Shown here piece after piece: positions 10,083 through 60,554 of a stretch of 64,000 nt of DNA. How positions within the stretch are numbered: the first letter of the stretch is position 1; every line of letters starts with the position of its first letter. Position numbers and translations under genes: made by a program. Below the pieces are notes generated by a model. It ran no database searches. It had not been told where the DNA came from and was given only the letters and a program-made list of their open reading frames with translations. Source of the DNA: an uncultured Pseudomonadales bacterium (GTDB lineage: Bacteria; Patescibacteriota; Microgenomatia; UBA1400; CAYNMC01). The stretch lies in assembly GCA_964414895.1 (NCBI GenBank), contig CAYPXO010000001.1, positions 26,999 through 90,998 on the forward strand, written 5' to 3'.

Positions 10083-10104
10083 GGATAAACCAGCCAGGCA
10101 AAGG

Positions 10105-10130
10105 TCTAGCCCCAGAAAAAGGGGGCTAGA
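10105..10130 (+). terminator. GC-rich stem-loop (TCTAGCCCC-AGAAAAAG-GGGGCTAGA) downstream of 9267..10082
   Basis: Perfect 9-bp inverted repeat. No strong U-tract. Confidence 0.35.
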
Positions 10131-10140
10131 TCAGTTCAAT

Positions 10141-10169
10141 TTGATAAATTTTTAATAAAAGCCTATAAT
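10141..10169 (+). promoter_or_regulatory. sigma70-like promoter TTGATA-17-TATAAT driving the moron cassette
   Basis: Near-consensus hexamers with 17-bp spacing, 23 nt upstream of the 10192 start. Confidence 0.55.
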
Positions 10170-10191
10170 TCAGGCAGAATCAGGAAAACGA

Positions 10192-16930: not shown

Positions 16931-18115
16931 ATGCCATCAGCAACAGGAATCAGAGGAACAGCAACACCAGACGACGCATCAGTGGTCATGCCGACCAGGA
17001 AATATGATGTAGCCGATGTTATTTCGCTATTGGATGTCAACCGATATCCGCTTTTAGCGATCTTAACTAACGCAGGAAAAGACCCAGTGACTAAGCAAGG
17101 AAAAGCCATGAAAAAGGTCGAGACTCTCGACCCGCAATTTAAGTGGTTTGAGGACGAATTCGGAAAAAGACAATTGACAGGCTCAGGCACAGTCGACCCA
17201 GACGGAGGCAACTTAACCGTCACAGCGCAAACGCAATACTTGCAGGTAGGAGATGTGGTTTTGGTAGCACTACAGAAATGGGTATTCGAAGTGACCGCAA
17301 TTACCGACGCCAATGTGGTTGTCGTAGGGGCAGAGCTAGGAGGGGCAACGGGAGCAGCAGCATCAGCAGTAGGCGATGTTTGGTTGATCGGGAATGTGAA
17401 CGAGGAAGGTGCGGGCTTGCGAGCCATCAAATCGACCCTTGCAGCCGAGGTTTACAACTACTGTCAAATTTTCAGAACGCCAATCGGTATTACGGAGACA
17501 GCCAAAAATACCAAGATGTGGACTAAGGAAAATGACTTTGACTACCAGAGACGCAAGAAAGGGATCGAACACATGGTTGACATTGAAAGAGCATTCTTAT
17601 TCGGAAAGAGAGGAATTGTCACCACAGGAACGCATCCCAAGAGATTTTCAGCAGGAATTTTGAGCAGAATCAGCACTTACGCTACTGCCAGTGTGGACAC
17701 GGAATCAGAGTTTGAGACATGGCTAGAAAGCTTATTCGCACACGGAAATGTGGAGAAATACCTCTTTGCAGCAGCCTCGGTGATCTCGATGATCAACCAG
17801 TGGGCAAAAGGGAAACTCCAAGTAATGAGCAAAGACAAGACCTACGGACTCGCCATCGTCACTTACGAATCGCCACACGGAACGCTGCACATGATCAAGC
17901 ATCCGCTATTGACTGGAACGACCTATGGAAACTACGCAGTAGGATTAGACATGGAGACGCTGACATACCGCTACCTCAGCAACCGAGACACTAAACTCTT
18001 GACCAACCGACAAGCACGAGGGGAAGACAGCCAAGTAGACGAATACTTGAGCGAAGTTGGATTGCAAATGGAGCAGGAAAAAAGACACGCCATCATGAGC
18101 ATGGGTGCGCTCTAA
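16931..18115 (+). CDS. major capsid protein
   Basis: 394-aa protein following the scaffold, with a strong terminator-like structure downstream. Size and position are typical of an HK97-fold capsid protein; no motif check was possible. Confidence 0.6.
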   Translation: MPSATGIRGTATPDDASVVMPTRKYDVADVISLLDVNRYPLLAILTNAGKDPVTKQGKAMKKVETLDPQFKWFEDEFGKRQLTGSGTVDPDGGNLTVTAQTQYLQVGDVVLVALQKWVFEVTAITDANVVVVGAELGGATGAAASAVGDVWLIGNVNEEGAGLRAIKSTLAAEVYNYCQIFRTPIGITETAKNTKMWTKENDFDYQRRKKGIEHMVDIERAFLFGKRGIVTTGTHPKRFSAGILSRISTYATASVDTESEFETWLESLFAHGNVEKYLFAAASVISMINQWAKGKLQVMSKDKTYGLAIVTYESPHGTLHMIKHPLLTGTTYGNYAVGLDMETLTYRYLSNRDTKLLTNRQARGEDSQVDEYLSEVGLQMEQEKRHAIMSMGAL

Positions 18116-18285: not shown

Positions 18286-18879
18286 ATGACCGACCAAGAA
18301 AGCAAACCATTAAAAGAAATGTCCATGCCCGAACTTTGGCAGGAAGCCAAAAGACTCGGCATCTCGAAGGGGGGCAAGAAAGCCAAACTGATCGAGAGGA
18401 TACAAGCAGCCCAAGAGGAAGGAGGTGAAAACATGCCTAAAAGTAAATCAAAAGCAGCCAAATCAGGAAAACAGCCAAAAGAGCAGGTTTACATTTCCAA
18501 GTATCACGAGCTGAGACTGGTGAATAAATCCTCCTACAACAAGGAAGTTGGAGGCAGAGTGGTCACAGTCCCAGGCACAGCGATCCAATTCCATGAAGGA
18601 GTCTATAGGACAAGCGAACCAGGCGAAATTGAATTCCTAGACAGCCATCCTAACTTCGGAAACACTTTTACCAAAGTCGAAAGAAAAGACCAGAAGAAAG
18701 CCGTCGATGAAGTGATTGCAGAGCGCTACAAGGACTTAGAGCAGCGTGAGAAAGAAGTAGCAGCCAAAGAGGAAGCCTTAAAGAAAAAAGAAATGGCAGC
18801 CAAAGGGCAAGAGGAAGGCGCAGAAAAGCCAAAAACAGTCTCAGGAGTGCGCAGCACGGCTGACAAGCCGAAGTTTTAA
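18286..18879 (+). CDS. structural-module protein with N-terminal Rho-N/SAP-like domain
   Basis: MSMPELWQEAKRLGISKGGKKAKLIERI resembles the Rho N-terminal/SAP helix-extension-helix. Lys/Glu-rich C-terminus. Confidence 0.45.
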   Translation: MTDQESKPLKEMSMPELWQEAKRLGISKGGKKAKLIERIQAAQEEGGENMPKSKSKAAKSGKQPKEQVYISKYHELRLVNKSSYNKEVGGRVVTVPGTAIQFHEGVYRTSEPGEIEFLDSHPNFGNTFTKVERKDQKKAVDEVIAERYKDLEQREKEVAAKEEALKKKEMAAKGQEEGAEKPKTVSGVRSTADKPKF

Positions 18880-19233: not shown

Positions 19234-19830
19234 ATGGCTAAATTAAGACCAGATAATAAACTCGAAAAAAGCCTTCTTCAAAAGCTGCTGGTGCTTATAA
19301 ACAGCGATGACGGCGAAGAAGATGCAGATACCACTTGGTATCCGAATGGCTTTGGTAGCAATCAAATTACAATCGGACACGACGGCACTGGCAGTTGCGA
19401 TGCGGGCTTAAGATTCCTGCGCTCAATAATTCCTAACAACGCCAAGATAGTCAAAGCGGTCTTAAGAGTAAAGGCAGCCGTCAACTCAACCAATCGACCA
19501 GTCTTTGTGATCAAGGGTATTAAAGAAGTTAGCCCGAACACATTTGCAGCAGACGGAAGCGATAGACCATCAACCAGAGCCAAAACAACGGCAACAGTCG
19601 CCTGGAGTCCAGGAGCAGACTGGGCAATCAACACCTGGTATGACAGCCCAGATATTAAAACGATCATCCAGGAGCTTATAGATCAGGCAGAATTTACAGG
19701 CAAGGCACTAGGTTTAGTCATCGAGGACAATGCCAGCCCAGCCAGCAATTACAACAACATTTGGGACTTTAATAGCGGACAAGCCAATGCAGTAAGGCTC
19801 ATCCTAACGATAGCACCGAATGTGCCTTAA
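19234..19830 (+). CDS. stand-alone copy of an unrecognised ~185-aa domain (DDGEED..TWYPNG..GHDG..C signature)
   Basis: Clear paralogy to three tandem domains in 21122..23710 (for example DDGEEDADTTWYPNGFGSNQITIGHDGTGSCDAGL versus DDGEEDYDTTWYPNGYSANRTTIGHDGSGSCDAGL). Confidence 0.55.
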   Translation: MAKLRPDNKLEKSLLQKLLVLINSDDGEEDADTTWYPNGFGSNQITIGHDGTGSCDAGLRFLRSIIPNNAKIVKAVLRVKAAVNSTNRPVFVIKGIKEVSPNTFAADGSDRPSTRAKTTATVAWSPGADWAINTWYDSPDIKTIIQELIDQAEFTGKALGLVIEDNASPASNYNNIWDFNSGQANAVRLILTIAPNVP

Positions 19831-19866
19831 AGTTAAAAGTTACGCCTGAAGGAGGTGAAAAAAGGA

Positions 19867-20151
19867 ATGCAAGAAAGCGACGCAGCATTACTAGAACAGA
19901 TTATAAAAGCCTTTGTTGACGAGCCAGAGAAGGTAGAAGTTGAGCGCAAAGTCGACGAAATGGGAGTGCTTCTTTTAGTCAGACTTGACGAAAAAGATGC
20001 AGGCTTGGTGATCGGAAAGGCAGGCAGCACGATAGCAGCGATCAGAAAGATCATGGGAGTGATCGGAATGAAGACCAACGCCAGATACAACATCAAACTG
20101 GATGTCCCAGAGCGAAAAGGGAGCGCAAGACCTCCCAGAAATAAAGTTTAA
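19867..20151 (+). CDS. KH-domain RNA-binding protein (KhpA-like)
   Basis: VIGKAGSTIAAIRKIMG matches the type-II KH GxxG loop. Start trimmed to the ATG at 19867, downstream of the GGAGGTGA SD. Confidence 0.55.
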   Translation: MQESDAALLEQIIKAFVDEPEKVEVERKVDEMGVLLLVRLDEKDAGLVIGKAGSTIAAIRKIMGVIGMKTNARYNIKLDVPERKGSARPPRNKV

Positions 20152-20161
20152 TTAAAAAATT

Positions 20162-20665
20162 ATGGCAGCAACAGTAAGAATCAACGAATACAACGGAGCA
20201 GGCGAAGTCGAAACTGTCAACATCGGCGACACCGATATGGGGGCAGTCGACCAAGCTAATCTCGATCCAGTCGCCAACCCCATCGTGCCTGGGGAAAACT
20301 CCTTTGAGAAATGGCAAAAGCTGGAAGTCACGGCAATGGGCGGATCTTCAAAAATCCACAACCTGAAGATTTGGAGAACAGGAGCTTTGGGAGGATCGGC
20401 AGTCCACCTAACCAATGCTAGAGAAGCAAGCTATGGAGGAGCAGAAACCTACGCTCAGCCAGTCGCTACAGACTCCACAGTCGCCACCCAAACCATGCCA
20501 TCAAGCGAACCATCAGGAGCAAACTTGGGGATCGGAGGGGCGCTGGCAGGCGAACTAACAGCCGTCGGCTACTCAGACTACCTGGTGCATCAGATTCAAA
20601 GCGACGCAGGCGATGTGGCAGGCTCAACCAGCACACTAAACTACCAATACGATGAGGTAGCTTAA
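20162..20665 (+). CDS. hypothetical structural protein
   Basis: 167-aa ORF. Confidence 0.4.
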   Translation: MAATVRINEYNGAGEVETVNIGDTDMGAVDQANLDPVANPIVPGENSFEKWQKLEVTAMGGSSKIHNLKIWRTGALGGSAVHLTNAREASYGGAETYAQPVATDSTVATQTMPSSEPSGANLGIGGALAGELTAVGYSDYLVHQIQSDAGDVAGSTSTLNYQYDEVA

Positions 20666-20705
20666 GTTAAAAAAAGCGCAATACAATGCGCCTTCGAGCA
20701 ATACA

Positions 20706-21125
20706 ATGCAAAAAAAAGATTTCATTTTCAAAAGACCAGAAACAGGCAAGACCGAGATCGTCAAGCGGGAACGCTGGCGATGGGTAGTGCATTATAAAGA
20801 CGGCACAAAACTTCACCAATTCGATGGCGAGGCGGGCATTTTTCACCAATTCAGAGAGATCGATCAAAGCAGAGTCGAGTCCTTCCAAATGGTCTCGGAC
20901 AAAAACCCAGAGGGCATCAACCTTTTAATTCCCCCAAACGGCGCAGACTTGATCCATTTTTACCGCAATGTAAGGCTGGCAGGCAGAAAAGATTGGATCA
21001 AACTATACTTCTTCGGCTGGAAAATCAAAGACCAAAGAGGCAGAAGCCTCCAAAAGCTAATTTGTATTTACCCCAACGACAAAATCGCATTGGTAGAAGA
21101 AGCAGAAGGAGGTGAGGCTGCGTGA
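20706..21125 (+). CDS. hypothetical protein
   Basis: 139-aa ORF overlapping the next start. Confidence 0.4.
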   Translation: MQKKDFIFKRPETGKTEIVKRERWRWVVHYKDGTKLHQFDGEAGIFHQFREIDQSRVESFQMVSDKNPEGINLLIPPNGADLIHFYRNVRLAGRKDWIKLYFFGWKIKDQRGRSLQKLICIYPNDKIALVEEAEGGEAA

Positions 21126-23710
21126 TTCTGGAGATTTTAATTAACACTGACGATGGCGAAGAAGACTACGATACAACTTGGTATCCCAACGGCTACTCCG
21201 CTAACCGAACCACAATCGGTCATGACGGCTCAGGAAGCTGCGATGCAGGCTTGTTATTTGATAATTCAGGTATTGCCGAGGCAGCCAGTGTCCTCAGTGC
21301 CAAAATAAGAGTAAAGTGCTCTGGCAACTCAACCAAAAGACCGACCCTGAAAATAAGAGGAATTCTGCAAGCCGACCCCGCAACCTGGGCGCAGGCAACC
21401 AGACCATCAACCAGACCCAAGACTACCGCATTTGTAGACTGGGATATAGCTGCAGACTGGGTGTTGAACACCTGGTATGAGTCCCCAGACATTACCGCCA
21501 TCATCCAAGAGATCGTCAACCAATCAGGCTTTGCAGGAGCAATCGCCCTAGTGATCGAGGACGACGGCAGTCCAAGCGGAGATTACGAGCTAATCTGGGA
21601 CTACAACAACGCTGCTGCCGATGCGCCAGAGTTGGTGGTAACTCTAGGATCAACAACAAAAATCCAGAAATCCCTCACCTATATTCTCGAACCGCAATTA
21701 GCCACGATCAATCTCCCAAAACAGCTTCAGTATGCGATTAACTCCACGCCTGCAGCGATTGAGAAAGAGCTGAGATATGTTATTTATCTGGGGGACACGA
21801 CGATCCAAAAAGCCCTTAAATACTGCATCAAAACCGAACCAGCAGCGATCACAAAATCCCTCAAGTATGCGATTAAAACTACCCCAGCAGCGAGCACAAA
21901 AGGATTACGATATTCAGTCATTCCCAACCTGCTGATCCAAAAAAGCCTGCAATATGCAATCAAGACAGAGCAGGTAATCCAGAAAATATTGCGATACTTT
22001 ATTAAGCCCGAAGAACCGCCAACAGAAAAGAGCAGAAATCAGGTCTTGAAAGTCGCCAGGATCGTCGCCGAGAATATCGATGATGGCAGAGAGGACAGCG
22101 ACAACAACTGGTATAAAGACGGCAACGCCAGCCACCTCATCACAATGGGCAACCTGGACGGCAAGACCCACACAGGAGCATTCCGCTTCCGCCATGTCGA
22201 CATCCCTCGCAATGCCAAGATATTCTTCGCCAGACTAAAACTGCGCTGCGCTTACACCGACGCCACTGACTTCACCACCAAACTAAGGATCAAGGGCATT
22301 AAAGAAGCCGATGTTAAACCATTTAGCAGCACCAACAAACCAAGCAGCAAAACAAAGACGGCAGACAGCGTCTCCTGGGAGATTTATAAAAAGTGGAACA
22401 TCAACGAGTGGGTGCAAACCCCTAACCTGCTTTTGATCGTGGAGGAGTTGGTGCGCCAGAGCCAGTGGAAGGCAGGCAATGCAATGGCGTTTGTGATTGA
22501 GGATGACGGCAGTGTAGCTGGCAACTCCAAAACCTGTTGGGACAGCTCAAGCGGGGTCGAGGATAAAGCCGAGCTGGAGATTTATTACTTTGATAAAGAA
22601 ATCAATGTCTCCTTCCTCCAGCTTAATGACCGAGACGGCGAAGAAGACTACAGAGATTTAGACCCACCAGACAACGCCTGGTATCCCGACGGCTGGGGCA
22701 ACAATCGAATCACCCTGGGAGACGACGGTGTGCATGAGCCAGAGTCGCCCAACGACGCAGGTTTTATCTTCTCCCCTGTTCAAATTCCTAAAGGAGCAAA
22801 AATCATCTCGGCTCGCATACTACTCACCGAAGATTCCCAAAACAATAACATGTGCAACTGGATTATAAAAGGATTCGCCGAAGACAATGCAGCTCCATTC
22901 AGTGGCGACGGCTCAAACCGCCCTTCAACCAGGACTAAAACCACTGCTAAAAAACAATGGTTTATAGGGCATGTGGAGGCAGGCATTTTACTCGGTGACC
23001 ACTGGACAGCCCAGAGCGTCTACGAATCACCAGAAATCAAGGAAATCATTCAGGAAATAGTGGATCGGGCAGGCTGGGTTGGAGACTCAAGCCAGAAGCT
23101 GGGCTTGGTGATTGAAAGCCACCACAGCCAGAGCGTCAAATACATCGTCGACTACAGCAAAGGAGGGGCAGGAAAATGGGCAGCGCAACTGATAATCGCC
23201 TGGCAATACATCAGGAGAACGACCACTGTTAAAAAGGATTTGGCAGCCTATGACAAAGCCAATTACCCAGAGTTTATTATCGTCCACCACTCAGCCACAG
23301 CCAGGGATACTACCCTATTTATTACCATCAAAAACGCCCATATAGGATATGGCTGGGAAGACATCGGCTACCACAAGTGGGTTTGTGGGGCAGCAGACGG
23401 AGATGGTATACTGAAACAAGGTAGACCAGACAACGAAATCGGAGCGCATTGCGACGACAACAAGATGAACTATCGCTCCATCGGAGCGTGTGTATGCGGA
23501 GACTTCCACTCGACAGGACTGAATGAAACCCCGACAGCAGCACAGTTAGCCACACTACAGCAACTCCTCGACGACACTCGAAAGCAGCGAGGTATTCCCA
23601 AAGAAAGAGTATTAGGACACGGCGAAGTTCCTGGTGCAGCCACCGACTGCCCAGGAGATAACCTGTTGCCTTATATCGTTAATTACCGAAACACAGGTAG
23701 TTTGACCTGA
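21122..23710 (+). CDS. virion-associated lysin or receptor-binding protein: three copies of the unrecognised ~185-aa domain, short tandem peptide repeats and a C-terminal amidase_2 (PGRP-type) N-acetylmuramoyl-L-alanine amidase
   Basis: The three domain copies lie at about 21122-21660, 22060-22600 and 22610-23200. The repeats xKxLxYxIKTxPAAx lie at 21660-22020. The amidase_2 region (23260-23700) carries VHHSAT, GYHKW, GAHC and TDCPGDN zinc-ligand motifs. Confidence 0.65.
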   Translation: MILEILINTDDGEEDYDTTWYPNGYSANRTTIGHDGSGSCDAGLLFDNSGIAEAASVLSAKIRVKCSGNSTKRPTLKIRGILQADPATWAQATRPSTRPKTTAFVDWDIAADWVLNTWYESPDITAIIQEIVNQSGFAGAIALVIEDDGSPSGDYELIWDYNNAAADAPELVVTLGSTTKIQKSLTYILEPQLATINLPKQLQYAINSTPAAIEKELRYVIYLGDTTIQKALKYCIKTEPAAITKSLKYAIKTTPAASTKGLRYSVIPNLLIQKSLQYAIKTEQVIQKILRYFIKPEEPPTEKSRNQVLKVARIVAENIDDGREDSDNNWYKDGNASHLITMGNLDGKTHTGAFRFRHVDIPRNAKIFFARLKLRCAYTDATDFTTKLRIKGIKEADVKPFSSTNKPSSKTKTADSVSWEIYKKWNINEWVQTPNLLLIVEELVRQSQWKAGNAMAFVIEDDGSVAGNSKTCWDSSSGVEDKAELEIYYFDKEINVSFLQLNDRDGEEDYRDLDPPDNAWYPDGWGNNRITLGDDGVHEPESPNDAGFIFSPVQIPKGAKIISARILLTEDSQNNNMCNWIIKGFAEDNAAPFSGDGSNRPSTRTKTTAKKQWFIGHVEAGILLGDHWTAQSVYESPEIKEIIQEIVDRAGWVGDSSQKLGLVIESHHSQSVKYIVDYSKGGAGKWAAQLIIAWQYIRRTTTVKKDLAAYDKANYPEFIIVHHSATARDTTLFITIKNAHIGYGWEDIGYHKWVCGAADGDGILKQGRPDNEIGAHCDDNKMNYRSIGACVCGDFHSTGLNETPTAAQLATLQQLLDDTRKQRGIPKERVLGHGEVPGAATDCPGDNLLPYIVNYRNTGSLT

Positions 23711-23724
23711 GAGGAGGTGAAAAT

Positions 23725-24408
23725 ATGCAATTTCAAGAATTTTTACAAGACCTAGACGCCAGAATCGCAGCCAGCAAAGTCACAGGCTTCTGGAAACCTG
23801 AAAACAAAGAGCGCTGGATTAACAAATCGGTGGTAAGAGCCTGCAATTATGCACGCTGGAAATTCCTCAGTAAGCACGCCACTCAAGCAATCGAGCTGGA
23901 GAGCGGAGAGATAAAAGAAAATTACTACCTTCCCTTTGACTACAAACCAGGCGGGATGATTTTAATCAAGGTCTATGACCCCGTCACCGAAAAGAGCCTA
24001 AAACACTTCAAGATCGACAACGACAGTTATCACTCAAAAGCCTACGAATACACCAGGGTTTATACCATCGTGGGAGACGAATACTTCCTCAACCTGCAAG
24101 AACTAGCCGAAGACTCAGGGCTGGCAGCCTCCGAAATGGAAGGCAAGATAATCGACCTTTATTACAAAAGACGCCCAGTGAAGCTGGTCGAGCCAACTGA
24201 TGAGCCAATCACCCCAGAAGAAATGGACGAGCCGATTATCAAGTTTGCTTTTTCAATCTGCCTTTCAAAGACGCCAGGAAGGGCAAAAGAAGCGGTCAAG
24301 GAAATCCAGGAAGCCAACTCGATGCTGCAGCAGATCAAGGACAGAGAGGAGGAAGAACCGCAGGCGGTGTTTAAGGGGCAGGCAACGAGCATGCGTTGGC
24401 AAAGGTAA
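23725..24408 (+). CDS. hypothetical structural protein
   Basis: 227-aa ORF preceded by GAGAGGAGGTGAAAA SD. Confidence 0.45.
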   Translation: MQFQEFLQDLDARIAASKVTGFWKPENKERWINKSVVRACNYARWKFLSKHATQAIELESGEIKENYYLPFDYKPGGMILIKVYDPVTEKSLKHFKIDNDSYHSKAYEYTRVYTIVGDEYFLNLQELAEDSGLAASEMEGKIIDLYYKRRPVKLVEPTDEPITPEEMDEPIIKFAFSICLSKTPGRAKEAVKEIQEANSMLQQIKDREEEEPQAVFKGQATSMRWQR

Positions 24409-28615: not shown

Positions 28616-31600
28616 ATGCCGACATTTTGGGATCAACTAAAAACAAACATACTAAGCCCTTTAGAAAAGGGAGTGTCCTCTATTGGTCAAACTTTGGGGG
28701 ATATTTTCAAGCCAGTAGGAGGGGCAGTCAGCGATCTATTCAAGCCAATCGGAACACTTAAACCAGAGCAGTCTGAATTTGCCATTAAAACAGAACAAGG
28801 CGAATACAGACCTTACACCAGCATCTATGCGGAATCAGCAGCACAAATGATAGGTCTTGGTGCAAGGGAAACTGATTTTTGGGAAAGACTCCCCCACGCA
28901 ACACTGGGGGCGGTCAAAGGATTTGGGGTGGGAGTAGCCAAAGCCCTCACCCTCGGCTGGTGGCAGCCAGAGGTTAAATATACCCACGACGCAGAAAAGA
29001 TGGCAGGCGAGCTGACCGAAATCGAGGGAGAGATTATGGGAACTATCGGGACATTCCTGATCGGCGGGGAGATCGTTCAGGCAGTGGGCAGAGGCATTCC
29101 CGCCGTCGCAAAATTCGCTCAGATCGCCCCCAAAACCTACCAGCTATTAACTAGCGGAGTCACCTTCGCAGGATTAGGGCAAGCGCACCACGACGCTACC
29201 CTGCTTGATGCACAAGGCAGAGCAAAAACATTCGTGGCAGACTTCGCCCTGGGCGGAGCATACTCGCTGGCGGGCATGAACCCAAACTACTTCAAAGGGA
29301 CAGGCATTATCGCCCCAGCAGCCTATGTCACTTCACTAATTAAGGGTGACACACCAGAAGACGCATTGAAAACAACGGCAGCCGTGATCGGACTGCATTC
29401 AATCAACTTCGCTCTAGCAAAAGCCTTCCCATCAAAAGCCGAGCAGCTGAGAAGAAACATGGACAAAGCAGCAACTGAGCAACTAGGAGTGACCAGAGCG
29501 CAAGCCAGAGAATACCTGGGAGTGACTGAAAAAATGTCGCCAGCAGAAATCAAGAAAGCCTGGCACAAAAAAGTGATCGAAATAACAAAGAGCTTCCCAG
29601 CCTATGTGGAGATGACACCCCAGCAAAATGCTAAATACACGGCAGACTACAACACCGCCAACCGAGCTTATGAGTTTTTAGCAAAGGTGCAAAACCCGAC
29701 AGGCTATACAGGCAAAACCTTCCGAAAAGAATTTGAGGACTTATTCTACGAACTCTGGGTAAAAGTCCCAGACAAGCGGGCATTGGTGGTCAGCGCCGTC
29801 AGAAACATGCCTGCAGGATTATCGATCCGATCCACCCTAACCCCAGAGCAAAGAGCGCAGATTATAGAAAAATTGGGAGGAGAAGAAGTCAAGACCAAAT
29901 TCGGATTGACGGCAGGCAAACTGACAAACCAGGACTTAATTACATTGGCAAAAGAAAAGAAAATCGAGGTGACACCGAGCAAAATAACACCAGAAAAAGC
30001 GATCACGAAAGCACCAGAGCCAAAAGTAGAACGCAAAGAAATCTGGTCACTCCCTGGCGACTTAATGCCAGCCAGAGGCAAGCCCACCTGGAAGCATAGC
30101 AAAATGCTCTGGAACACCATGCGCAATCAATACGGCATGACCAACACCTGGAGCAAAGACATCACTGTAAACAAAGGGGCGGTTTCCTGGATTATCGACA
30201 CCCTCGAAAACGGACTGGCAAGCAAAAAGGATTTAATGACCGAAGCCAGAAAAACCAAAGGTATCCGCATGGACAGCAGGCAATACAAAAAGCTCTACGC
30301 CATGTTTAAGTCCAGAGATTATGACATCGAAGGCTACAAGAAAGTGATGTCGGTTTTGAAAGGAATTAAACCAGCGATAATTGAAAAAACCATTGAGCCT
30401 GCAAAATCAGCACCAAAAGCCCCGCCAATCAAACTAAAAACAGCTGAGGAGTTGATAAAAGAGGATAGATTAAGACCCCAAACTTCAGGATTCGGGCAAG
30501 GAAAATTCTGGCAATACAGAGCTGAGGACGGCATTTATACAGTAGCCCCAAATAAAGAGGAAGCGATAAAAAGAGCCAACGAAGCCCTGGCAGCAAAACC
30601 AAGCAAACCAGCAACCAAGCCCATATCGAAACCAGAGCCAGAGGTGCAGCCAACCGAAGGCTTCCAATTTGATGCTGACTCAACCGCCAAAGCAGGAAAA
30701 GTCACAGTCAAAGACCCTGGTATTTTTGAGAAAGGCACGCTATTCAGACAGAAAGGGAAAGATGCGGGAGTATCCTACTTGATGGGCAAGAACACCCAAA
30801 CAGGCAATACAGAAGTCCAGACAATTTACTTCGACAAAAAGCTATTCACTGAGGGGGAGGCAGCCAAGTGGTGGACGAAAAACGGCGATAAATTCACCAA
30901 ACCTTGGAGCATTAAAGAGGAAAAACTGCCAGCAAAGCCAGAACCGAAACCAGCAGCCAAGCCAAAAGAAACACTGGCAGGGCGCTTTTATCACGGCACA
31001 TCAAGAGAAGCAGCCCAAGCGATCCAAAAAGAAGGCTTTGTCATTGAGAGCTTCGAAGAAGGCAGAGGATTAGGCAATGCAATCTACCTCAGCCCGAAAC
31101 CAGAATACGCCAGAAACTACGCCATCAAAGGCGGGATCAGCAAAGAAGGCGAGATCATGGGAGTGGTGTTGGAGACAAAAGTAAAAGTCGACAATGTCCT
31201 CCGCTTAAAAGACGCAGCAGCCAGGAGAAAACTCGCTGACCTTGCCATGAAAGAAACAGGCTTGCCAGAAGACGAGGCATTGACAAAATATGTTCAAGAC
31301 CAGGGCTACGATGCCATTCTCACCCAGGAGGATATTATCGGCACGGCGACTCCATCGCTGGCAATTTTTGATCCCAGTAAAATCAAAGTGGTAGGGATCG
31401 CCGAACCAGTAATGGCAGGCGAAAAACCGACTCCATTGCCAAAAAGAGATGGCAAATTCACGGCGCAGGAAAAGAAGGCAGCCAAAGCCGAGGAGATCAG
31501 ACTTAAATACCGACCAGAAGAAAAAGAGTTGTTAGAAGCAGAGCGAGTCCCCAGCGTCGGCGAGATTATGAAAAGCAAGAAATTCCAGGATCGTATAAAA

Positions 31601-34339
31601 GGCAAGGTCAAGGCGTCGAGCCAGATGAGATTGGATGAGGCAAAGCCTGCACCTCCAGGAAGCCCGCCAAGACCGCCAAAAGAAGTGCCTATCGCTCAAG
31701 CCCCTCCTCCACCAGAAGGAAGCGGACTGGAGGCAATCGACAAAATGGTCGGCAAAGTCGGCGCACCGCAAAAAATAGGAGAATTCCTCAAAGGACTAAC
31801 GCCTAAATTCAGACGCAATTTTACCGACAGATTTGCCTTAATGAAAGACTTCGAGGAAAAAGTGAGCAAGCTACAAGGGCAGCCAATCGACATCAACTCC
31901 AGTCCCTATGTGGCAGCCAGACTGTATGCGGGCAGATTCGGGACGATAGAGGCAGCCTTCCGAGATTTGCAAAAGATCGTCACACCAGTGAGGAAACATC
32001 GACCAGACTTCACCCGCTATGTGTTGGCACAGCGTGCCATCGAAAGAGCGGATCGGGGCTTTGATAACCCTGCAGGAGTGACCAAAGAGCAGGCAGAGCT
32101 GGCACTCACCGAGCTGAAAGCCAAAGTTGGTGACAAGGTTTATAAGCAATTCGAGCAAGGAGGGCAAGCGATCCAAAACTGGTCGATCAGACAAATCCTA
32201 GAACCAATGCGAGACACAGGGTTGATCAGCAAAAAGGCATTCAACGCCATAGTTGAAAAGAATAAAAACTGGATGCCGTTCCATGTCCTCGACTACCTCC
32301 CCGATACCAAACAAGCAGACCAGATGCAATCGGGCAGCGAAACCTTCTCGGTCAGCAAACAGGGCGTGATTAAAGGATTAAAAGGCACGGAGAAAATCAT
32401 CCGTGACCCCTTCGAATCAATAGTCGATAACCTAAGCAAAGCTATCAGCCTAACCAAGAGAAATGAGGTGGCACGCAAGCTCATTGACCTAAGAAAAACC
32501 CACCCAGAAGCAAAAGAGTCTATAAAATACCTGCACAAAAACGCCAAAGCCCCCAAAGATTGGGACACCATCAGCGCATTTATTAACGGCAAGGTAACCC
32601 GCTGGGCTGTGCCAAAAGGGTTGAGTGACGCCATGCACTCCATGAGTCCAGTCGAAGCGGGACTCTTGGGTAAACTGGCGAAGACATCAACCAAAGCATT
32701 CAAAGCAGGAGTGACGACTTTTTACATTCCCTTCACCCTAACCAATGCCATCAGGGACTACCAGACAGCAACAGTCGTCAACAAATGGGGATTCAACCCA
32801 GTGACCTGGCTATCGGGATTCAAAGACAGCATTAAAGGAGCATTCAGGTGGGATTCAAAAGCCTACGACGAATTCCTGCGCAACGAGGGAGGCTACGGAG
32901 GCTACATCGGCAGCACCAGACAGCTCTCGATAGCAGCCAAAGAGTTATTTACACCGAGCTGGTGGACAAAAACAAAAGCGGTCATCAACCCTCTTAATTT
33001 GATCAGCAACTTCGCCGAGGCAATCGAACTGTCGCCAAGACTGGGAATTTATAAAAAGGGAATTAAAAAGCCAGGAGTGACCGAGTTGGAGGCAGCCTTC
33101 GAAGCCAGAAACTCGACTGTCGACTTTGCAAAATCAGGTAAAGAGATGCGGATTATCAACCAGTGGATTCCCTTTGTAAACGCCAGGTGGCAAGGAGTCC
33201 TCAGAGTCAAAGACGCCTTCAAAGAGCATCCGTTCAAATCGGCAATAAAAGCAATGGCAATGATTGTCATGCCAGGAGTGGCAACCTATTTTTACAACAT
33301 CCTCAATTACGAAGAACTGTGGGATGACATCCCCCAGTGGGCAAAAGATAACTACTTCATCGTTATTCTAGGATCGGAGCTGGATGAAGAAGGCAAAACA
33401 GTCCCAAAGGTGCTGCAGATTCCCAAAGGCGACATGGGGCAGATTTTTTTCAATCCCCTGCAATACACCTTTGAGTATGTCAGAAAGCAAGAACCGCAAA
33501 ACCTATTTAAACTAGCCTTAGAGTGGACAAGCCAAATCTCCCCGATCCCATTCACCAGGGACGGCGAATTATCGGGCAGCTCATTCCTGGCTGGGGCGCT
33601 ACCGCCAGCATTGAAAACCCTGGTCGAGGAAGTCACTAACATGAACCTATTTACAGGCTTCCCGCTCATTCCAAGAAAACTGGAGAAGGTCGCCCCAACC
33701 GAGCAATACAACGAAAGGACTCCAGGTGTGGCAGTAGGAATTGGGCGAGCCGTCGGCATCAGCCCAATGAGACTGGCTCATGTCGCAAGCGGATTGTTCG
33801 GCTCAAGCAGCAGGTATGTTTATAACCCAGCTGACCTGCTCGGTTTATCAGTAAAAAGATTTGTCAGAACTCAGGGCGGGGCAAAAGAAAGAGAAGCCTG
33901 GAAGGTGCGGGATGAAGCCGAAATCGGCTATAACACCACCCGACTATTCGTCCAGCAAGCGCTGCAAGCAGGTGATCTGCAGAAAGCCCAGAGCCTGGCA
34001 ACCGAGTGGAATAACAAAGTTCAGCAATACATTCCCCAGATTGTGCCTTACCTGATGGCAGACGATCCGAAAGAGGCGGTGAGCTTCCAGAAAAGCATCA
34101 TGTTTGACGCTGCAGACCTAAGACGACTTATGAAGCTTAATGCTCCTCCAGGAGCAGCGCTAAAGCCACCCAGTCGAGCCGTAGGCACACCTTCAAGGCA
34201 AGCTGACCCATTAGGGATATTCGGAGGGCAAAGTCCAGCAGGAGCGCCTCCAACACCGACAGGGACACAACCGACGATGGGGCAAATGTTCCCGACAGAG
34301 GGAGGAGGACAAAACGATCCACTAGGATTGTTTAAGTAA
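28616..34339 (+). CDS. giant (1907 aa) virion or ejection protein with a degenerate J-like domain and a KptA/Tpt1 (PARP-fold)-like domain; possible tape-measure or internal-core analogue
   Basis: Single uninterrupted ORF. J-like segment at about 29480-29690 (EYLGVTEKMSPAEIKKAWHKK...ANRAYEFLAK, with HPD replaced by FPA). KptA-like segment at about 30975-31215 (RFYHGTSREAAQAIQKEGF...AIYLSPKPE, compare E. coli KptA FLYHGTASRFLDEIKKQGL...YVHLSADE). Multiple Pro/Lys linkers and a Gly/Pro-rich C-terminus. Confidence 0.6.
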   Translation: MPTFWDQLKTNILSPLEKGVSSIGQTLGDIFKPVGGAVSDLFKPIGTLKPEQSEFAIKTEQGEYRPYTSIYAESAAQMIGLGARETDFWERLPHATLGAVKGFGVGVAKALTLGWWQPEVKYTHDAEKMAGELTEIEGEIMGTIGTFLIGGEIVQAVGRGIPAVAKFAQIAPKTYQLLTSGVTFAGLGQAHHDATLLDAQGRAKTFVADFALGGAYSLAGMNPNYFKGTGIIAPAAYVTSLIKGDTPEDALKTTAAVIGLHSINFALAKAFPSKAEQLRRNMDKAATEQLGVTRAQAREYLGVTEKMSPAEIKKAWHKKVIEITKSFPAYVEMTPQQNAKYTADYNTANRAYEFLAKVQNPTGYTGKTFRKEFEDLFYELWVKVPDKRALVVSAVRNMPAGLSIRSTLTPEQRAQIIEKLGGEEVKTKFGLTAGKLTNQDLITLAKEKKIEVTPSKITPEKAITKAPEPKVERKEIWSLPGDLMPARGKPTWKHSKMLWNTMRNQYGMTNTWSKDITVNKGAVSWIIDTLENGLASKKDLMTEARKTKGIRMDSRQYKKLYAMFKSRDYDIEGYKKVMSVLKGIKPAIIEKTIEPAKSAPKAPPIKLKTAEELIKEDRLRPQTSGFGQGKFWQYRAEDGIYTVAPNKEEAIKRANEALAAKPSKPATKPISKPEPEVQPTEGFQFDADSTAKAGKVTVKDPGIFEKGTLFRQKGKDAGVSYLMGKNTQTGNTEVQTIYFDKKLFTEGEAAKWWTKNGDKFTKPWSIKEEKLPAKPEPKPAAKPKETLAGRFYHGTSREAAQAIQKEGFVIESFEEGRGLGNAIYLSPKPEYARNYAIKGGISKEGEIMGVVLETKVKVDNVLRLKDAAARRKLADLAMKETGLPEDEALTKYVQDQGYDAILTQEDIIGTATPSLAIFDPSKIKVVGIAEPVMAGEKPTPLPKRDGKFTAQEKKAAKAEEIRLKYRPEEKELLEAERVPSVGEIMKSKKFQDRIKGKVKASSQMRLDEAKPAPPGSPPRPPKEVPIAQAPPPPEGSGLEAIDKMVGKVGAPQKIGEFLKGLTPKFRRNFTDRFALMKDFEEKVSKLQGQPIDINSSPYVAARLYAGRFGTIEAAFRDLQKIVTPVRKHRPDFTRYVLAQRAIERADRGFDNPAGVTKEQAELALTELKAKVGDKVYKQFEQGGQAIQNWSIRQILEPMRDTGLISKKAFNAIVEKNKNWMPFHVLDYLPDTKQADQMQSGSETFSVSKQGVIKGLKGTEKIIRDPFESIVDNLSKAISLTKRNEVARKLIDLRKTHPEAKESIKYLHKNAKAPKDWDTISAFINGKVTRWAVPKGLSDAMHSMSPVEAGLLGKLAKTSTKAFKAGVTTFYIPFTLTNAIRDYQTATVVNKWGFNPVTWLSGFKDSIKGAFRWDSKAYDEFLRNEGGYGGYIGSTRQLSIAAKELFTPSWWTKTKAVINPLNLISNFAEAIELSPRLGIYKKGIKKPGVTELEAAFEARNSTVDFAKSGKEMRIINQWIPFVNARWQGVLRVKDAFKEHPFKSAIKAMAMIVMPGVATYFYNILNYEELWDDIPQWAKDNYFIVILGSELDEEGKTVPKVLQIPKGDMGQIFFNPLQYTFEYVRKQEPQNLFKLALEWTSQISPIPFTRDGELSGSSFLAGALPPALKTLVEEVTNMNLFTGFPLIPRKLEKVAPTEQYNERTPGVAVGIGRAVGISPMRLAHVASGLFGSSSRYVYNPADLLGLSVKRFVRTQGGAKEREAWKVRDEAEIGYNTTRLFVQQALQAGDLQKAQSLATEWNNKVQQYIPQIVPYLMADDPKEAVSFQKSIMFDAADLRRLMKLNAPPGAALKPPSRAVGTPSRQADPLGIFGGQSPAGAPPTPTGTQPTMGQMFPTEGGGQNDPLGLFK

Positions 34340-34343
34340 ACCT

Positions 34344-35465
34344 ATGAAAAAGAAACTAAAACTACCAATCACATTCAGCCAAAACGATCCCAGGTGGAAG
34401 AACAGCCCACTAGGGACTAAAGGGACGATAGGAAATTACGGCTGCCTCATGGTTGACGGCACGATGGTGGTTAACTACTACGGCTTCCGAGAAACACCGC
34501 TGACCATGAACCAGAAACTGACAGAGAACGGCGGATACATGAGTGGCAACCTGTTCGTGTGGGGGGCAATCCCCAAGCTATTCCCAGGGCTGAAATACAA
34601 AGGAAAATGGTCAAATAAAAACCCACTGACTCAAGCCCAAATGAACCAGATTAGAGAGGCAATTAACAAAGGCTACCCAGTATTCCTGCAAATTGACACC
34701 ATTCCTTCAACCTCAGCTTTAGACGAACACTGGGTGCTGGCAATCGGTTACGACGGCGATGACTTTATAATTCAAGACCCCTGGGACGGAGCAGAAAAAA
34801 GAATCACCAGCTGGGGTGTGACACCGCAAAAGCTAATTTATTCTTGGTGTTGGTATGAAGGCAAACCAGCTGAAACCGATCCAGCAGAAGGCTGCTTAGT
34901 GCCAAACACCCCAGAGTGGCGAGAAAAATACGAGGACATCGTCAGCTCAGCCACGAAATGGGCAGACTCCCTCAAGATTATGGAGATCGAAGGCGACCCA
35001 TCAACGACCCCAACCGACAAAGTTAAGAGTGTCATTGCAGGGTATAAATCAAGGGAAACTGATCTTAAAAACCAGCTCAGCGATAGACAAAAAGACCTGG
35101 ATGTTGCCAACCAGGAAATTAAAAACCGCATAGAACAAGTTAGCAGACTGGAAGGCGATCTGCGAGAAAAGGATAAATACTATAAAGACCTTATCAATGC
35201 GCTAAAATCGGACATCAAAAATCTGCCAAAAATACTGGAGCAAGCGCAGGGTAGGATCGGGGTGCTGGAGGGGGAAGTCGACGAAGCCAACAAAGCCAAA
35301 GGCAGGGCGCTAAACCAGGCAGCAGAGTATAAAAGTCGCCTTGAAACCTGCGAAAAAGGACAACTGCCAGTGCCAACAAAGAACCTAATAAATACAGCAA
35401 TAGAAATTTTGATTAACCTAATCAAGGATTTTTTCAAAAAGAAGGAGGTGAAAAAAGATGGGTAG
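34344..35465 (+). CDS. endolysin: peptidase C39-like (Peptidase_C39_2) cell-wall hydrolase with C-terminal coiled coil
   Basis: FSQNDPRW...GNYGCLMV...HWVLAIGYDGDDFIIQDPWDG gives the Cys/His arrangement of C39-like phage lysins. Sits immediately upstream of the holin. Confidence 0.6.
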   Translation: MKKKLKLPITFSQNDPRWKNSPLGTKGTIGNYGCLMVDGTMVVNYYGFRETPLTMNQKLTENGGYMSGNLFVWGAIPKLFPGLKYKGKWSNKNPLTQAQMNQIREAINKGYPVFLQIDTIPSTSALDEHWVLAIGYDGDDFIIQDPWDGAEKRITSWGVTPQKLIYSWCWYEGKPAETDPAEGCLVPNTPEWREKYEDIVSSATKWADSLKIMEIEGDPSTTPTDKVKSVIAGYKSRETDLKNQLSDRQKDLDVANQEIKNRIEQVSRLEGDLREKDKYYKDLINALKSDIKNLPKILEQAQGRIGVLEGEVDEANKAKGRALNQAAEYKSRLETCEKGQLPVPTKNLINTAIEILINLIKDFFKKKEVKKDG

Positions 35466-35739
35466 TTTTAGTGATATCGGCAAAGCATATCCAGAGTGGA
35501 AGAAGGATGCCTGGCAGCTCTTGCGAACCTTTATCTCGGCATTTTTAGTCGGCGGATCGATAGTTTTAATCAATGCGGGAACGGATGCATTCATGAGCTG
35601 GGCAAACTTCCTGCACCTTTTAGTCTACCCCTTCCTGCTTGCAGGAGCGGTGGCAGGAGTGAACGCCGTTGGGAAGCTGCTGCGAAGTTTATTCGGAGCA
35701 GAAACAAAAGACAGCTTAATTGATAAGCTGCCGTTCTAA
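35458..35739 (+). CDS. holin-like protein (two TM helices)
   Basis: 93 aa with two hydrophobic helices and a charged C-terminus; overlaps the endolysin stop. Confidence 0.5.
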   Translation: MGSFSDIGKAYPEWKKDAWQLLRTFISAFLVGGSIVLINAGTDAFMSWANFLHLLVYPFLLAGAVAGVNAVGKLLRSLFGAETKDSLIDKLPF

Positions 35740-35761
35740 CAAAGGCGGTGAGCAGAAAAAT

Positions 35762-36013
35762 ATGGCAAAATCAAAAGAAGCAACTATGATGGACATTATC
35801 GAAAGAGTCGCCAAACTTGAGGAGCGGGTGGATGGTGGCTTTGGCTACATAAAAGAGGAGCTAAAGGATATAAAAGAGAACCACCTCTACACCCTTCAAA
35901 CAGATGTGAACGACCTTAAAATTAAGGTTAACACCCTCGCAGTAAAAATGGGGGTAATTGTGGCAGTTGTAACGATTGTAATCGACATCGCAATTCGCTT
36001 CCTTTTCAAATAA
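35762..36013 (+). CDS. XhlA-like lysis-associated protein (coiled coil plus C-terminal TM)
   Basis: Coiled-coil N-terminus and a C-terminal TM helix (GVIVAVVTIVIDIAI), reminiscent of the XhlA hemolysin family. Start trimmed to the ATG at 35762. Confidence 0.4.
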   Translation: MAKSKEATMMDIIERVAKLEERVDGGFGYIKEELKDIKENHLYTLQTDVNDLKIKVNTLAVKMGVIVAVVTIVIDIAIRFLFK

Positions 36014-36836: not shown

Positions 36837-37925
36837 CTACGCCTTTTTTAGTGTCAGCTCAAAAGCCAACCCACCTGACTTCTCCACCAGTTTATACTCA
36901 AAACGAGCATCGTCCTGCAGCTGAAAGGATTTGATCTCCTCCTTAACATTTTTCATTATCATTTTAGGGTCTTGAGACTTGCGAATTAAGGGGTGCTTGA
37001 GCATGGCGTCCCGAAGATCGTCCGTGACCATGTGGGTGTAGATCATGGTAGTATCAACCTTGCGGTGACCGACGATCCGCTGGACTTTGGAAATCGCCAC
37101 ATCCACCCGCAGAAGCTCGGTTATAAACGAGTGACGGAAGGCATGGGCATGGAAACGGCGGTCAACATGAAGACCAGCCCGCCTAGCACGCTCCCGCAGC
37201 GCTTTATTAACCATCGTCCCGCCGACCCGACGATTGGGACTGGTGCGCCGAAAGTGCATAGAAACGAATAAGGGCGCTGTTGGTGGAGCGCCCTTGCGGT
37301 GAGCATTGACCCAAGATTTAAGTTTAATAACCATGTCGGGAGGGATCGGCACGATCCGCTGCTCGTCGGTTTTAGTCTCCCGAATAATAAACTCCTCCGA
37401 TCCAAAATTCAGGTCGCCAAGATTGAGATTAAGCACCTCCCCGACACGGCAGCCAGTCTTAGCCAGAAACTCAAAGAAGATAGACCACATCTCATCGACC
37501 TCGACATACTTAGGATACAAGTGAGGTACATCAGGGCAGTTGTTGGTGGGCTTGCGGGCAGGAGGATTGATGACCTTTTCAATCTCCTCCAGCGAAAGAG
37601 TCTGGTATAAAACGATTTTTTTCTTAGGACGCAAGGCGTTCAGGCGGGAGGTAATATCCTTAAGAGGCAAATGCTGCTCGGCAATCAGGAAGCGAATAAA
37701 GGAATTAAGGGTAGTGATGAGGACATTGATGTAGTTGGGGGAAAGGTTGGATTTTTTATAGGAGCGGATCTGGTCACGGATATTTTCAAAAGAAAAATCA
37801 CCCTCACCCAAGTCCGAGAAGAACTTCGAAAGCCACTGGCGTCTAACTTTAACAGTCTGCTCGGACAGGTCTCGATCATATTTAATGAACTCGATGTAAT
37901 CCTGCTGGAGATTCGAGTATTTCAT
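36837..37925 (-). CDS. int: tyrosine-type site-specific integrase
   Basis: Catalytic region HAHAFRHSFITEL...VGHRKVDTTMIYTHM (R..H-x-x-R..Y). Last phage gene, lying next to the disrupted host comM. Confidence 0.85.
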   Translation of the reverse strand: MKYSNLQQDYIEFIKYDRDLSEQTVKVRRQWLSKFFSDLGEGDFSFENIRDQIRSYKKSNLSPNYINVLITTLNSFIRFLIAEQHLPLKDITSRLNALRPKKKIVLYQTLSLEEIEKVINPPARKPTNNCPDVPHLYPKYVEVDEMWSIFFEFLAKTGCRVGEVLNLNLGDLNFGSEEFIIRETKTDEQRIVPIPPDMVIKLKSWVNAHRKGAPPTAPLFVSMHFRRTSPNRRVGGTMVNKALRERARRAGLHVDRRFHAHAFRHSFITELLRVDVAISKVQRIVGHRKVDTTMIYTHMVTDDLRDAMLKHPLIRKSQDPKMIMKNVKEEIKSFQLQDDARFEYKLVEKSGGLAFELTLKKA

Positions 37926-38029: not shown

Positions 38030-38085
38030 GGAGTTAGCTGCCCCTTGAAGGGGAAGATTAGAAGCAAGAAACCTTCGAGAACTCC
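38030..38085. other. putative prophage-host attachment junction inside comM
   Basis: Both the GC-content shift and the divergence of the comM reading frame from the conserved ...LFLDELSEF continuation occur here. Confidence 0.35.
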
Positions 38086-39011
38086 GACAACTCGTCCAAA
38101 AACAAAACTCCCCGGTGAGCCAAGGAAATTTCTCCAGGAGCCGGTTTAGAGCCACCGCCAATAAGACCAATCCGAGAAATAGTGTGGTGAGGACTTCTAA
38201 AAGGGCGGTGTTTAACAATGGAAAATTGAGCGGGTAAGTTGCCAGTTATAGAATAAGTCTTGGTTACTTCTAATGCCTCTTCTTCTGTCAACTTAGGTAA
38301 AATTGAAGGAAAACTGCGCGCCAGCATTGTTTTACCGGCACCCGGGGGGCCAATCATCAAAACATTGTGTCCGCCAGCCGCCGCTATTTCCAAAGCTCTT
38401 TTGGCATTCTCCTGACCGCTAATCTCTGCCATATCAAATTCAAAATCAAATTTCTTGTTTAGTTGACTAAATCTGACATGCTTTTGGAAAATTATCTCTT
38501 TTAATCCCGAAAAATGATGAAAAAGCTGCAATAGAGAAACAACCGGAAATACCTTTATTCTTTTTATAATCGCTGCTTCTTTGGCATTGACTGCTGGCAA
38601 AAACAGATTTCTTAACTTTAACTGTCTAGCTAAGATCGCCATTGGCAGCACCCCATTAGTATGGCGAAGAGAGCCATCTAGCGACAATTCCCCTAAAACT
38701 AGAGAGTCAGAAAGAGAACTATCAAGCTGGCCTGAAGCTATCAAAATCCCCAAAGCCATCGGTAAATCATAAGCCGGTCCTTCTTTGGGTAAATCGGCGG
38801 GAGTTAAATTAATAGTAATTCTGTGAATAGGAAAATCGCAGCCAGTATTTTTTAAAGCTGCCCTTATTCTTTCTTTGGCTTCTTCAACTGCTTTGCCAGG
38901 CAAACCAACAATGTTAAAACGGGGAAGGCTCTTTGAAGAAATATCTACCTCTACCTCAACAGGGACAGATTCCAAACCAACAGTTGCTCCGGAAATAACT
39001 TTAGCCAACAT
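38058..39011 (-). pseudogene. comM: comM/yifB Mg-chelatase-like ATPase, N-terminal ~315 aa only; truncated by prophage insertion
   Basis: Canonical ComM N-domain and Walker A (MIGPPGAGKT). The ORF ends right after VLFLDELSEF, where full-length ComM continues for about 180 more residues. Confidence 0.7.
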
Positions 39012-60479: not shown

Positions 60480-60554
60480 CGGGGTATGGTCTAGTGGCTA
60501 TGATAGGCGCATGGGGTGCGTCTGACCCCAGTTCGATTCTGGGTACCCCGACCA
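60480..60554 (+). tRNA. tRNA-Pro (anticodon GGG)
   Basis: Acceptor stem CGGGGTA/TACCCCG with C1-G72 (characteristic of bacterial tRNA-Pro). Anticodon stem-loop GGCGC-AUGGGGU-GCGUC. T-arm CCCAG-TTCGATT-CTGGG. Discriminator A; CCA encoded. Confidence 0.75.

Follow-up and report, generated by a model that had tools for sequence, protein, structure and literature searches.

Several tailed phages carry ejection-type wall hydrolases, of which phi29 gp13, T7 gp16 and SU10 gp20 are examples. DNRLRE domains, in turn, have an archaeal distribution and occur in disaggregatase and in surface-layer (S-layer) proteins. In the Escherichia phage SU10, an immunoglobulin (Ig)-like putative minor capsid protein, gp10, is located between the major capsid protein (MCP) gp9 and the adaptor gp11 (PMC9509320). 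Carbohydrate-binding modules (CBMs) of family 96, CBM96, bind polysaccharides through a basic or aromatic groove, which in TM6-N4 uses Lys, Arg and Tyr residues (PMC9971899). Here we discuss two genes of a SU10-like short-tailed prophage that is inserted in comM of a bacterium of the Candidate Phyla Radiation (CPR, or Patescibacteria). The window, that is the whole stretch of DNA analysed, comprises 64,000 nucleotides of contig CAYPXO010000001.1 (positions 26,999 to 90,998, forward strand), and all coordinates are window positions unless a related contig is named. The genes encode gpA, a protein of 198 residues (19234..19830, + strand), and gpB, a protein of 862 residues (21122..23710, + strand, GTG start), which share a module of about 180 residues, termed D in the following. 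Sequence comparisons and structure models lead us to favour, with modest confidence and somewhat above an even chance, gpB as a virion-borne wall hydrolase that is docked by glycan-binding modules, and gpA as an accessory adhesin.

The module is present four times. A BLASTP comparison of gpA with gpB returns three collinear segments at gpB residues 3-175 (D1; 55% identity, E 3.5e-64), 302-485 (D2; 36%, E 8e-32) and 491-692 (D3; 38%, E 1e-34). When aligned, the four copies have 31 invariant columns and share the signature N..DG.ED.D..WY..G...T.G...F....I...A....A...I.G...PS..KT...W...W...P...I..E...VIE..S...D, which reproduces the one proposed in an earlier, sequence-only reading of this DNA. 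A six-frame scan of the window with hidden Markov models (HMMs) found exactly these four copies and no fifth at E<=10; whether derived from the four copies or from a diverse set of relatives, the models include the window copies and are informative solely for the absence of extras.

In gpA, an N-terminal helix of about 20 residues (MAK...) is combined with a single D module (residues ~18-193, nucleotides ~19285-19812). The architecture of gpB is more elaborate. It begins with D1 (residues 1-176, 21122..21649), continues through a repeat region (residues ~181-300, 21662..22021) to D2 (residues ~305-490, 22034..22591) and D3 (residues ~495-697, 22604..23212), the latter with two insertions, and ends in an Amidase_2 domain, an N-acetylmuramoyl-L-alanine amidase (residues 714-846, 23261..23659), all on the + strand. 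The gpB copies had been described as three in tandem; D2 and D3 are indeed adjacent, but D1 is set apart from D2 by the repeat region of about 120 residues. This region consists of eight basic units of about 15 residues (14-17 each, residues 183-300) with the pattern I.K.L(K/R)Y.IK..P..., which bears out the short repeats of the xKxLxYxIKTxPAA type reported before, and part of it is encoded by a tandem repeat of 45 bp in the DNA. A search for homologues of the repeat region returned none, and as an AlphaFold2 monomer it has a predicted local distance difference test score (pLDDT) of ~25. One may speculate that the repeats form an oligomeric shaft, trimeric and similar to a triple beta-spiral, or else a basic stretch that binds the wall.

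The fusion to a Zn amidase, likewise noted in the sequence-only reading, is clear: the domain scores 64 bits against Amidase_2 (PF01510; cutoff 26, E 2.2e-17) and is also matched by the PHROG families for amidase and endolysin. By alignment, H722 corresponds to H17 and Y750 to Y46 of T7 lysozyme, while H833 and C843, in the stretch GH(833)GEVPGAATDC(843)PG, correspond to the His...Cys pair of the peptidoglycan recognition proteins (PGRPs). All four residues are invariant in 32 orthologues. With its predicted Zn ligands H722, H833 and C843 and its catalytic Tyr Y750 intact, gpB is, as judged from its sequence, a catalytically complete amidase.

Where does the D module belong? Neither Pfam nor PHROGs has a match to it in gpA or gpB. 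In NCBIfam, D1 of gpB aligns to DNRLRE_dom (NF033679) with 31.2 bits and an E value of 2.1e-7 over model positions 19-164 of 164, and gpA with 22.8-23.1 bits (E about 7e-5), the curated cutoff being 34 bits. DNRLRE_dom is the sole NCBIfam family matched by the D modules of gpA and gpB, and again the only one matched by 15 of 24 diverse relatives (best E 2.2e-10). Pfam yields for these 24 one weak match to Disaggr_repeat (2e-4) and nothing else, and the distant relative P0154 scores 25.6 bits against CBM96 (PF24517), for which the gathering score is 26 bits.

The AlphaFold2 model of gpA, based on 27 sequences, is a beta-sandwich with a pLDDT of 89 and a predicted TM-score (pTM) of 0.85. Foldseek ranks the chondroitin-sulfate-binding CBM 8wab (8wab_A) first in the PDB (E 1.4e-8, TM-scores 0.61/0.67) and the alginate-binding founder of CBM96, 7vbo, fifth (E 2.7e-6, TM-scores 0.53/0.57), both with a probability of 1.00. 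Arm domains of pro-BMP9/TGF-beta prodomains rank between and after these two, and resemblance to the BMP9 prodomain is a known property of CBM96 itself. Among the predicted viral structures of BFVD, the top match is a CBM96-named protein of Brevibacillus phage SecTim467, and the other best matches are entries named "tail protein", "tail fiber" and "minor tail" together with a phage pectate lyase; viral jelly-roll capsid proteins match more weakly (TM-scores 0.25-0.33). The earlier view that D fits no known family thus has to be revised, even if Pfam and PHROGs miss it. At the level of the fold there is a high-probability match to CBMs, a finding that the sequence-only reading had itself named as grounds for refutation and that largely removes its claim, although the sequence scores stay below the curated thresholds. 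Taken together, models and profiles indicate that D is a divergent relative of the DNRLRE/CBM96 beta-sandwich superfamily, and we file it as a relative rather than a member. Its most conserved motif is acidic (DDxEE).

The family is large. When 1.84 billion representative proteins were searched exhaustively with HMMER, 16,282 matched D at E<=1e-3, of which 10,094 also matched at E<=1e-10. Most of them are 1,000-5,800 residues long, contain 3-8 copies each, and combine D with PKD, fn3, Big, VWA and metallophosphatase domains or with sorting domains of the type IX secretion system (T9SS). Their D regions are also devoid of Pfam annotation, bar the borderline CBM96 match of P0154 (25.6 versus 26 bits), and for the top multi-copy relatives the cluster names are largely blank. 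The family-wide consensus comprises an acidic N-terminal DDxEE, GLRF, IP.GA.I..A, KTTA.V.W, SPDI..I.QEIVD and AP.L.I.Y. Judged by these searches, D is neither rare nor lineage-specific and forms an extensive, still uncurated branch within an established superfamily of surface and glycan-binding domains. Stand-alone homologues of gpA are far fewer: 51 of about 195-200 residues, plus variants of 336 residues that contain DUF2793. A tblastn search with gpA against 50,697 deposited phage genomes gave a single weak match, to a hypothetical protein of a Methanosarcinales double-stranded DNA virus (BK063674.1, 56-511; 32% identity, E 1e-6), and the prophage lineage is therefore not among the reference phages. 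This one match agrees with the archaeal spread of DNRLRE domains.

Both gpA and gpB have orthologues in prophages and viral contigs of the same gene order, among them a 1.10-Mb contig of Candidatus Daviesbacteria and a complete 0.90-Mb Woesebacteria genome, as well as in Shapiro-, Gottesman-, Nomurabacteria and other metagenome-assembled genomes (MAGs) of Patescibacteria. The prophage lineage is thus a conserved and widely distributed one of the CPR. Seven contigs with a CPR-type prophage amidase (L025, L027, L029, L031, L033, L035 and L036), one of them a single contig of 0.95 Mb, carry the labels Gammaproteobacteria, Pseudomonadales or Cyclobacteriaceae; they are probably mislabelled or mis-binned Patescibacteria.

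For the analysis of gene order we used 16 related loci (L001-L017); a further contig, L018, belongs to a different type of phage. The order MCP-SAP-p107-[gpA]-[KH]-[p167-p139]-gpB-adaptor-p491-fibre-p354-p1907 is kept in all 16. The gpB gene lies immediately 5' of the adaptor gene in 15 of them, which are all those with the adaptor region retrieved; the remaining one (L008) ends before gpB. The gpB protein itself comes in three forms. A short form of about 550 residues, D2-D3-amidase, is the core that is present everywhere. In a form of 686 residues (L054) the repeats are added at the N-terminus, and the long form of 862-866 residues carries D1 in front of the repeats. D2 and D3 are accordingly kept in all orthologues, and D1 has no counterpart in the 686-residue and ~550-residue proteins. 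As D1 is the copy nearest to gpA in sequence, this suggests that it was derived by duplication of a gpA-like gene.

The gpA gene, by comparison, is optional. It is missing from L012-L017, where its slot is taken by an unrelated protein of about 192 residues with no Pfam match (L012 8809-9384, L013 8827-9405, L014 9375-9962 and L017 8820-9407). This protein was considered as a cryptic D module and rejected, hhalign giving a probability of 0.2% against the D profile; it has only the first residues (MADF/MSDF) in common with the gpA homologues (MAKF/MADF). It looks as if small accessory proteins of the virion are exchanged in this slot as cassettes. In other relatives gpA is extended to 336-338 residues (L005-L008, gpA position 9569-10579; P0025, P0027, P0035) by a DUF2793 domain (8e-22), which comes after the N-terminal peptide and before D. 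DUF2793 is the domain of Rcc00171, the tail-fibre protein of RcGTA, and is also that of phage proteins with a tail-fibre annotation (PMC5026251). The unrelated, siphovirus-like contig L018 offers another view of the module: there, a single D is part of a fibre-like protein of 707 residues, encoded directly 3' of the tape measure, Dit-like and Tal-like genes and with a possible BNR/Asp-box motif (Pfam E 0.05).

If gpB is a wall hydrolase, is it also the enzyme that releases the progeny? A putative lysis cassette is found elsewhere, at 34344-36013 near the end of the prophage and on the + strand. It consists of a C39_2-like peptidase with a long coiled coil (34344..35465), a holin-like protein of 93 residues with two transmembrane segments (35458..35739), the only small protein of this kind in the late region, and a protein of 97 residues with a C-terminal transmembrane segment (35720..36013). 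Our assignment follows from the neighbourhoods in related phages. In L055 (4935-6550) the coiled-coil tail and the holin-like gene are retained and the C39-like head is swapped for an M23-like one (below the Pfam cutoff). The conserved tail of about 200 residues carries a C39_2-like head in the window and in L039. In L039 (3854-5644), the closest C39 homologue, transmembrane proteins follow, and in L018 (13112-14686) a homologue of the holin-like protein stands beside an M23-like peptidase and two other small transmembrane proteins. An exchange of catalytic heads beside a holin-like gene is the typical picture of an endolysin locus. The related phage contigs were missed when C39 homologues were sought by pattern, as their catalytic domain is swapped. 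Given this separate cassette, gpB is a second wall hydrolase, located within the morphogenesis block. No transmembrane or holin-like protein is predicted near it, between 18286 and 28557.

These observations allow us to sketch how the two proteins might work. The D modules would dock the particle or the enzyme onto an envelope glycan of the CPR host, either a wall polysaccharide or a glycosylated S-layer, and the presence of two or three modules would supply avidity. The C-terminal Zn amidase would then cut MurNAc-L-Ala bonds at the contact site and open the wall for DNA delivery through the short tail, a role in entry rather than exit. In the same scheme gpA would be an exchangeable single-module adhesin with the same type of binding, anchored to the virion by its short N-terminal segment, which in some relatives appears to be replaced by the tail-fibre domain DUF2793. 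That gpB is associated with the virion is suggested by its place in the structural block, the lack of a nearby transmembrane protein, the separate cassette, the fibre-like D protein of L018 and the DUF2793 variants of gpA. The sequence-only reading had suggested a cell-wall or S-layer binding module of a tail-associated lysin or receptor-binding protein. In keeping with it, binding of a surface or cell-wall glycan in a virion-associated lysin or adhesin is the reading best supported here, by the position in the structural module, the synteny, the separate lysis cassette, the fibre-like protein and the occurrence of the fold in phage tail proteins.

Several points weigh against it. D stays below the curated DNRLRE cutoff (31.2 versus 34 bits), and Pfam CBM96 (PF24517) has no match at E<=0.1 in gpA or gpB and none in any of the 24 diverse members. 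In searches of PDB sequences, neither the profiles (A1, A3) nor the sequences P0154 and P0131 retrieved 7vbo or 8wab, so the relationship between D and CBM96 has to be a distant one. The proposed homology accordingly combines a sub-threshold HMM match with a similarity of predicted fold (TM-score about 0.6). The assignment of the peptidase at the end of the prophage is weak too, M23 being below cutoff and C39_2 not specific for wall hydrolases. Furthermore, gpB has no recognisable virion-attachment domain, its short form begins directly at D2, and binding modules joined to an amidase make an endolysin architecture as well, in line with the NCBI labels of the orthologues as amidase or PGRP. A long coiled coil like that of the cassette peptidase is atypical for an endolysin.

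The strongest competitor holds that gpB is the endolysin of the phage, or one of two, with N-terminal D modules that bind the cell wall, and that it acts from within late in the lytic cycle; gpA would then be an accessory protein unrelated to it, or else a free protein that competes for this binding site or regulates it. Binding domains together with Amidase_2 are the classic lysin pattern, both PHROG labels fit, gpB lacks a signal peptide or obvious virion anchor, and its orthologues are universal in the phage family. The genes of T7-type amidase lysins can, moreover, lie far from the holin gene (T7 gp3.5 and gp17.5). We regard the endolysin as a serious rival, if a less probable one than the virion-borne enzyme, for reasons of context and build. 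The gpB gene is enclosed between capsid and adaptor genes, with overlapping or 14-nucleotide junctions to its structural neighbours, and no transmembrane protein adjoins it, which sets it apart from the holin adjacency of a canonical holin-endolysin cassette. Such a conserved block of virion morphogenesis genes is where a virion-associated peptidoglycan hydrolase is to be expected. The peptidase and holin-like cassette with its swapped catalytic domain is separate, at the end of the prophage. With 862 residues gpB is also large for an endolysin, and its catalytic domain comes last, behind a repeat spacer and as many as three modules for binding.

A second competitor places both proteins on the head: D would be a module of capsid-surface decoration or head fibres, with gpA in the slot of SU10 gp10 and gpB as a head fibre, so that particles adhere to polysaccharide matrices, and not for penetration of the wall. 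The gpA gene lies three genes past the MCP gene, recalling the Ig-like gp10 between gp9 and gp11 of SU10, and gpA is dispensable and swapped for an unrelated protein of about 192 residues, as is often the case with accessory decoration proteins. Yet a catalytically intact amidase has no obvious use on a head fibre, and tail fibres are suggested both by the variants with DUF2793 and by the protein of L018. The top viral fold matches are to tail proteins, and the capsid jelly-rolls, which would favour decoration, reach TM-scores of only 0.25-0.33. We consider a head location improbable. More improbable still is that D is a truly new fold or family unrelated to CBMs, or that it inhibits the amidase in the manner of a pro-domain, as its resemblance to the pro-TGF-beta/BMP9 arm might suggest: the missing Pfam, PHROG and PDB-sequence matches and the high rank of pro-BMP9 prodomains are outweighed by the specific, recurrent, near full-length match to DNRLRE_dom as the sole NCBIfam family in 15 of 24 members, by the first rank of CBM96 structures in both PDB and BFVD, by the fact that CBM96 itself already resembles BMP9, and by the occurrence of D in thousands of proteins without an amidase, which a dedicated pro-domain would not show.

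The prophage that houses the two genes spans the window from position 1 to ~38 kb, with a GC content of 46-49% as opposed to 32-41% (average ~0.35) in the flank beyond, the drop at the boundary being from ~0.48 to ~0.35; its left end falls outside the window. The right boundary is marked by a tyrosine integrase (36837..37925, - strand), which abuts a truncated comM/Mg-chelatase gene of 317 residues (38058..39011). Its match to the Mg_chelatase profile stops at position 120 of 207, and integration of the prophage appears to have cut comM short. Throughout positions 1-36000 the + strand has an AT skew of 0.25-0.40 (A over T) and every long open reading frame (ORF) is on this strand; the skew is lost in the host flank. 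Also in the host flank, a tRNA-Pro (GGG) at 60480-60554 overlaps the start of a mechanically called ORF (60494-61162, + strand), which is therefore probably mis-started or spurious.

The virion module is marked by the SU10-type MCP (16931..18115, + strand; PF17236, 148 bits). Directly after it follows a SAP-domain protein of 197 residues (18286..18879) with an N-terminal DNA-binding motif of the SAP/Rho_N-like kind and a Lys/Glu-rich tail, which is present in all relatives and may be a DNA-binding or internal head protein. Between gpA and gpB, a KH-domain protein of 98 residues, of the RNA-binding KhpA/KhpB type (19855..20151; PF13083, 61 bits), is an unexpected find between capsid and adaptor genes, and it is kept in many, not all, related phages. 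The adaptor-like protein of SU10 type directly downstream of gpB (23725..24408, + strand) is identified by synteny and a PF24175 score of 22.6 bits, below the cutoff of 27, and the portal similarly stays below cutoff (PF23899, 24 versus 30 bits). Pfam and PHROGs scans further identify a terminase of the family type named gpA and a tail fibre. After the fibre genes, a protein of 1,907 residues (28616..34339) contains the 'large polyvalent protein' domain LPD38 (residues 1567-1762); it is kept in relatives, with a length of ~1,590-1,900 residues where complete, and is probably an ejection or internal virion protein.

What can be gained from this locus? More than 16,000 representative proteins contain a domain family that escapes Pfam and PHROGs and remains sub-threshold in NCBIfam; with a curated model, many giant surface proteins would receive an annotation. 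Phages of the CPR/Patescibacteria are barely characterised, and the locus offers a conserved lineage, with members in Woese-, Davies-, Shapiro-, Gottesman- and Nomurabacteria MAGs, together with a candidate for envelope recognition and wall breaching. A bolder proposal, which we put forward only tentatively, is that D makes up a very large family of glycan-binding domains, sister to DNRLRE/CBM96 and comprising 16,000 or more clusters at 50% identity, and that a novel class of virion lysin in this CPR prophage lineage relies on it to recognise the host. It is possible, though to our minds equally doubtful, that such a lysin would be defined by N-terminal CBM-like modules and a possibly trimeric shaft of 15-residue repeats, with the amidase at the C-terminus. 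If D does act in host recognition on a virion lysin, it would offer a probe, the first one defined by sequence, for an envelope glycan of CPR cells. Fluorescent D modules could be used to label CPR cells that are uncultured, and the amidase could become a lysin directed at the CPR.

How does the locus compare with what has been described before? With DNRLRE/CBM96, D shares a size of ~160-185 residues, the beta-sandwich (Foldseek E 1e-8 to 3e-6, TM-scores 0.53-0.67), an HMM alignment that is sub-threshold but near full length, the resemblance to pro-BMP9 arm domains, and the presence, as tandem copies, in multidomain proteins that are secreted or surface-located as well as in tail proteins of phages. 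It differs in staying below both curated cutoffs, in its own signature (N-terminal DDxEE, GLRF, IKG, RPSxxxKTT and SPDI..IIQE), which recurs in the more than 16,000 unannotated proteins of the representative set, and in its fusion to a peptidoglycan amidase instead of a polysaccharide lyase or glycosidase.

The virion module of the prophage resembles that of SU10, a Kuravirus, in the strong match of its MCP to PF17236, the weak ones of portal and adaptor to SU10 families, and a gene order of portal, scaffold, MCP, adaptor, fibres and large ejection-type proteins. SU10, however, has the single Ig-like gene gp10 between MCP and adaptor, where we find seven genes including those for SAP, KH, gpA and gpB, and its wall hydrolase gp20 is an ejection-protein transglycosylase and not an amidase with CBMs.

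The combination of two or three N-terminal CBM96-like modules, an optional spacer of 15-residue repeats, a C-terminal amidase, a paralogue of the module and a fixed place 5' of the adaptor gene in CPR prophages was not found as a whole in the reference phage collection or in the literature searched. It can be compared with the modular peptidoglycan hydrolases of phages, such as phi29 gp13, T7 gp16, SU10 gp20 and enzymes of the T7 lysozyme/PGRP type: gpB has an Amidase_2 domain with an H/H/C Zn site and a catalytic Tyr, the enzyme is joined to non-catalytic binding modules, and it is encoded by a tailed phage. In contrast to these, the modules of gpB are CBM96-like and not SH3b, LysM, CW_binding or PG_binding; they are N-terminal, number up to three and come with the 15-residue repeat spacer. 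Close by is the gene for gpA, a paralogue of the module that stands alone. The gpB gene lies between those of MCP and adaptor, and the host belongs to the CPR. Seen against this background, gpB is a variation on the known theme of modular phage wall hydrolases, and nothing in it overturns current concepts of phage lysins.

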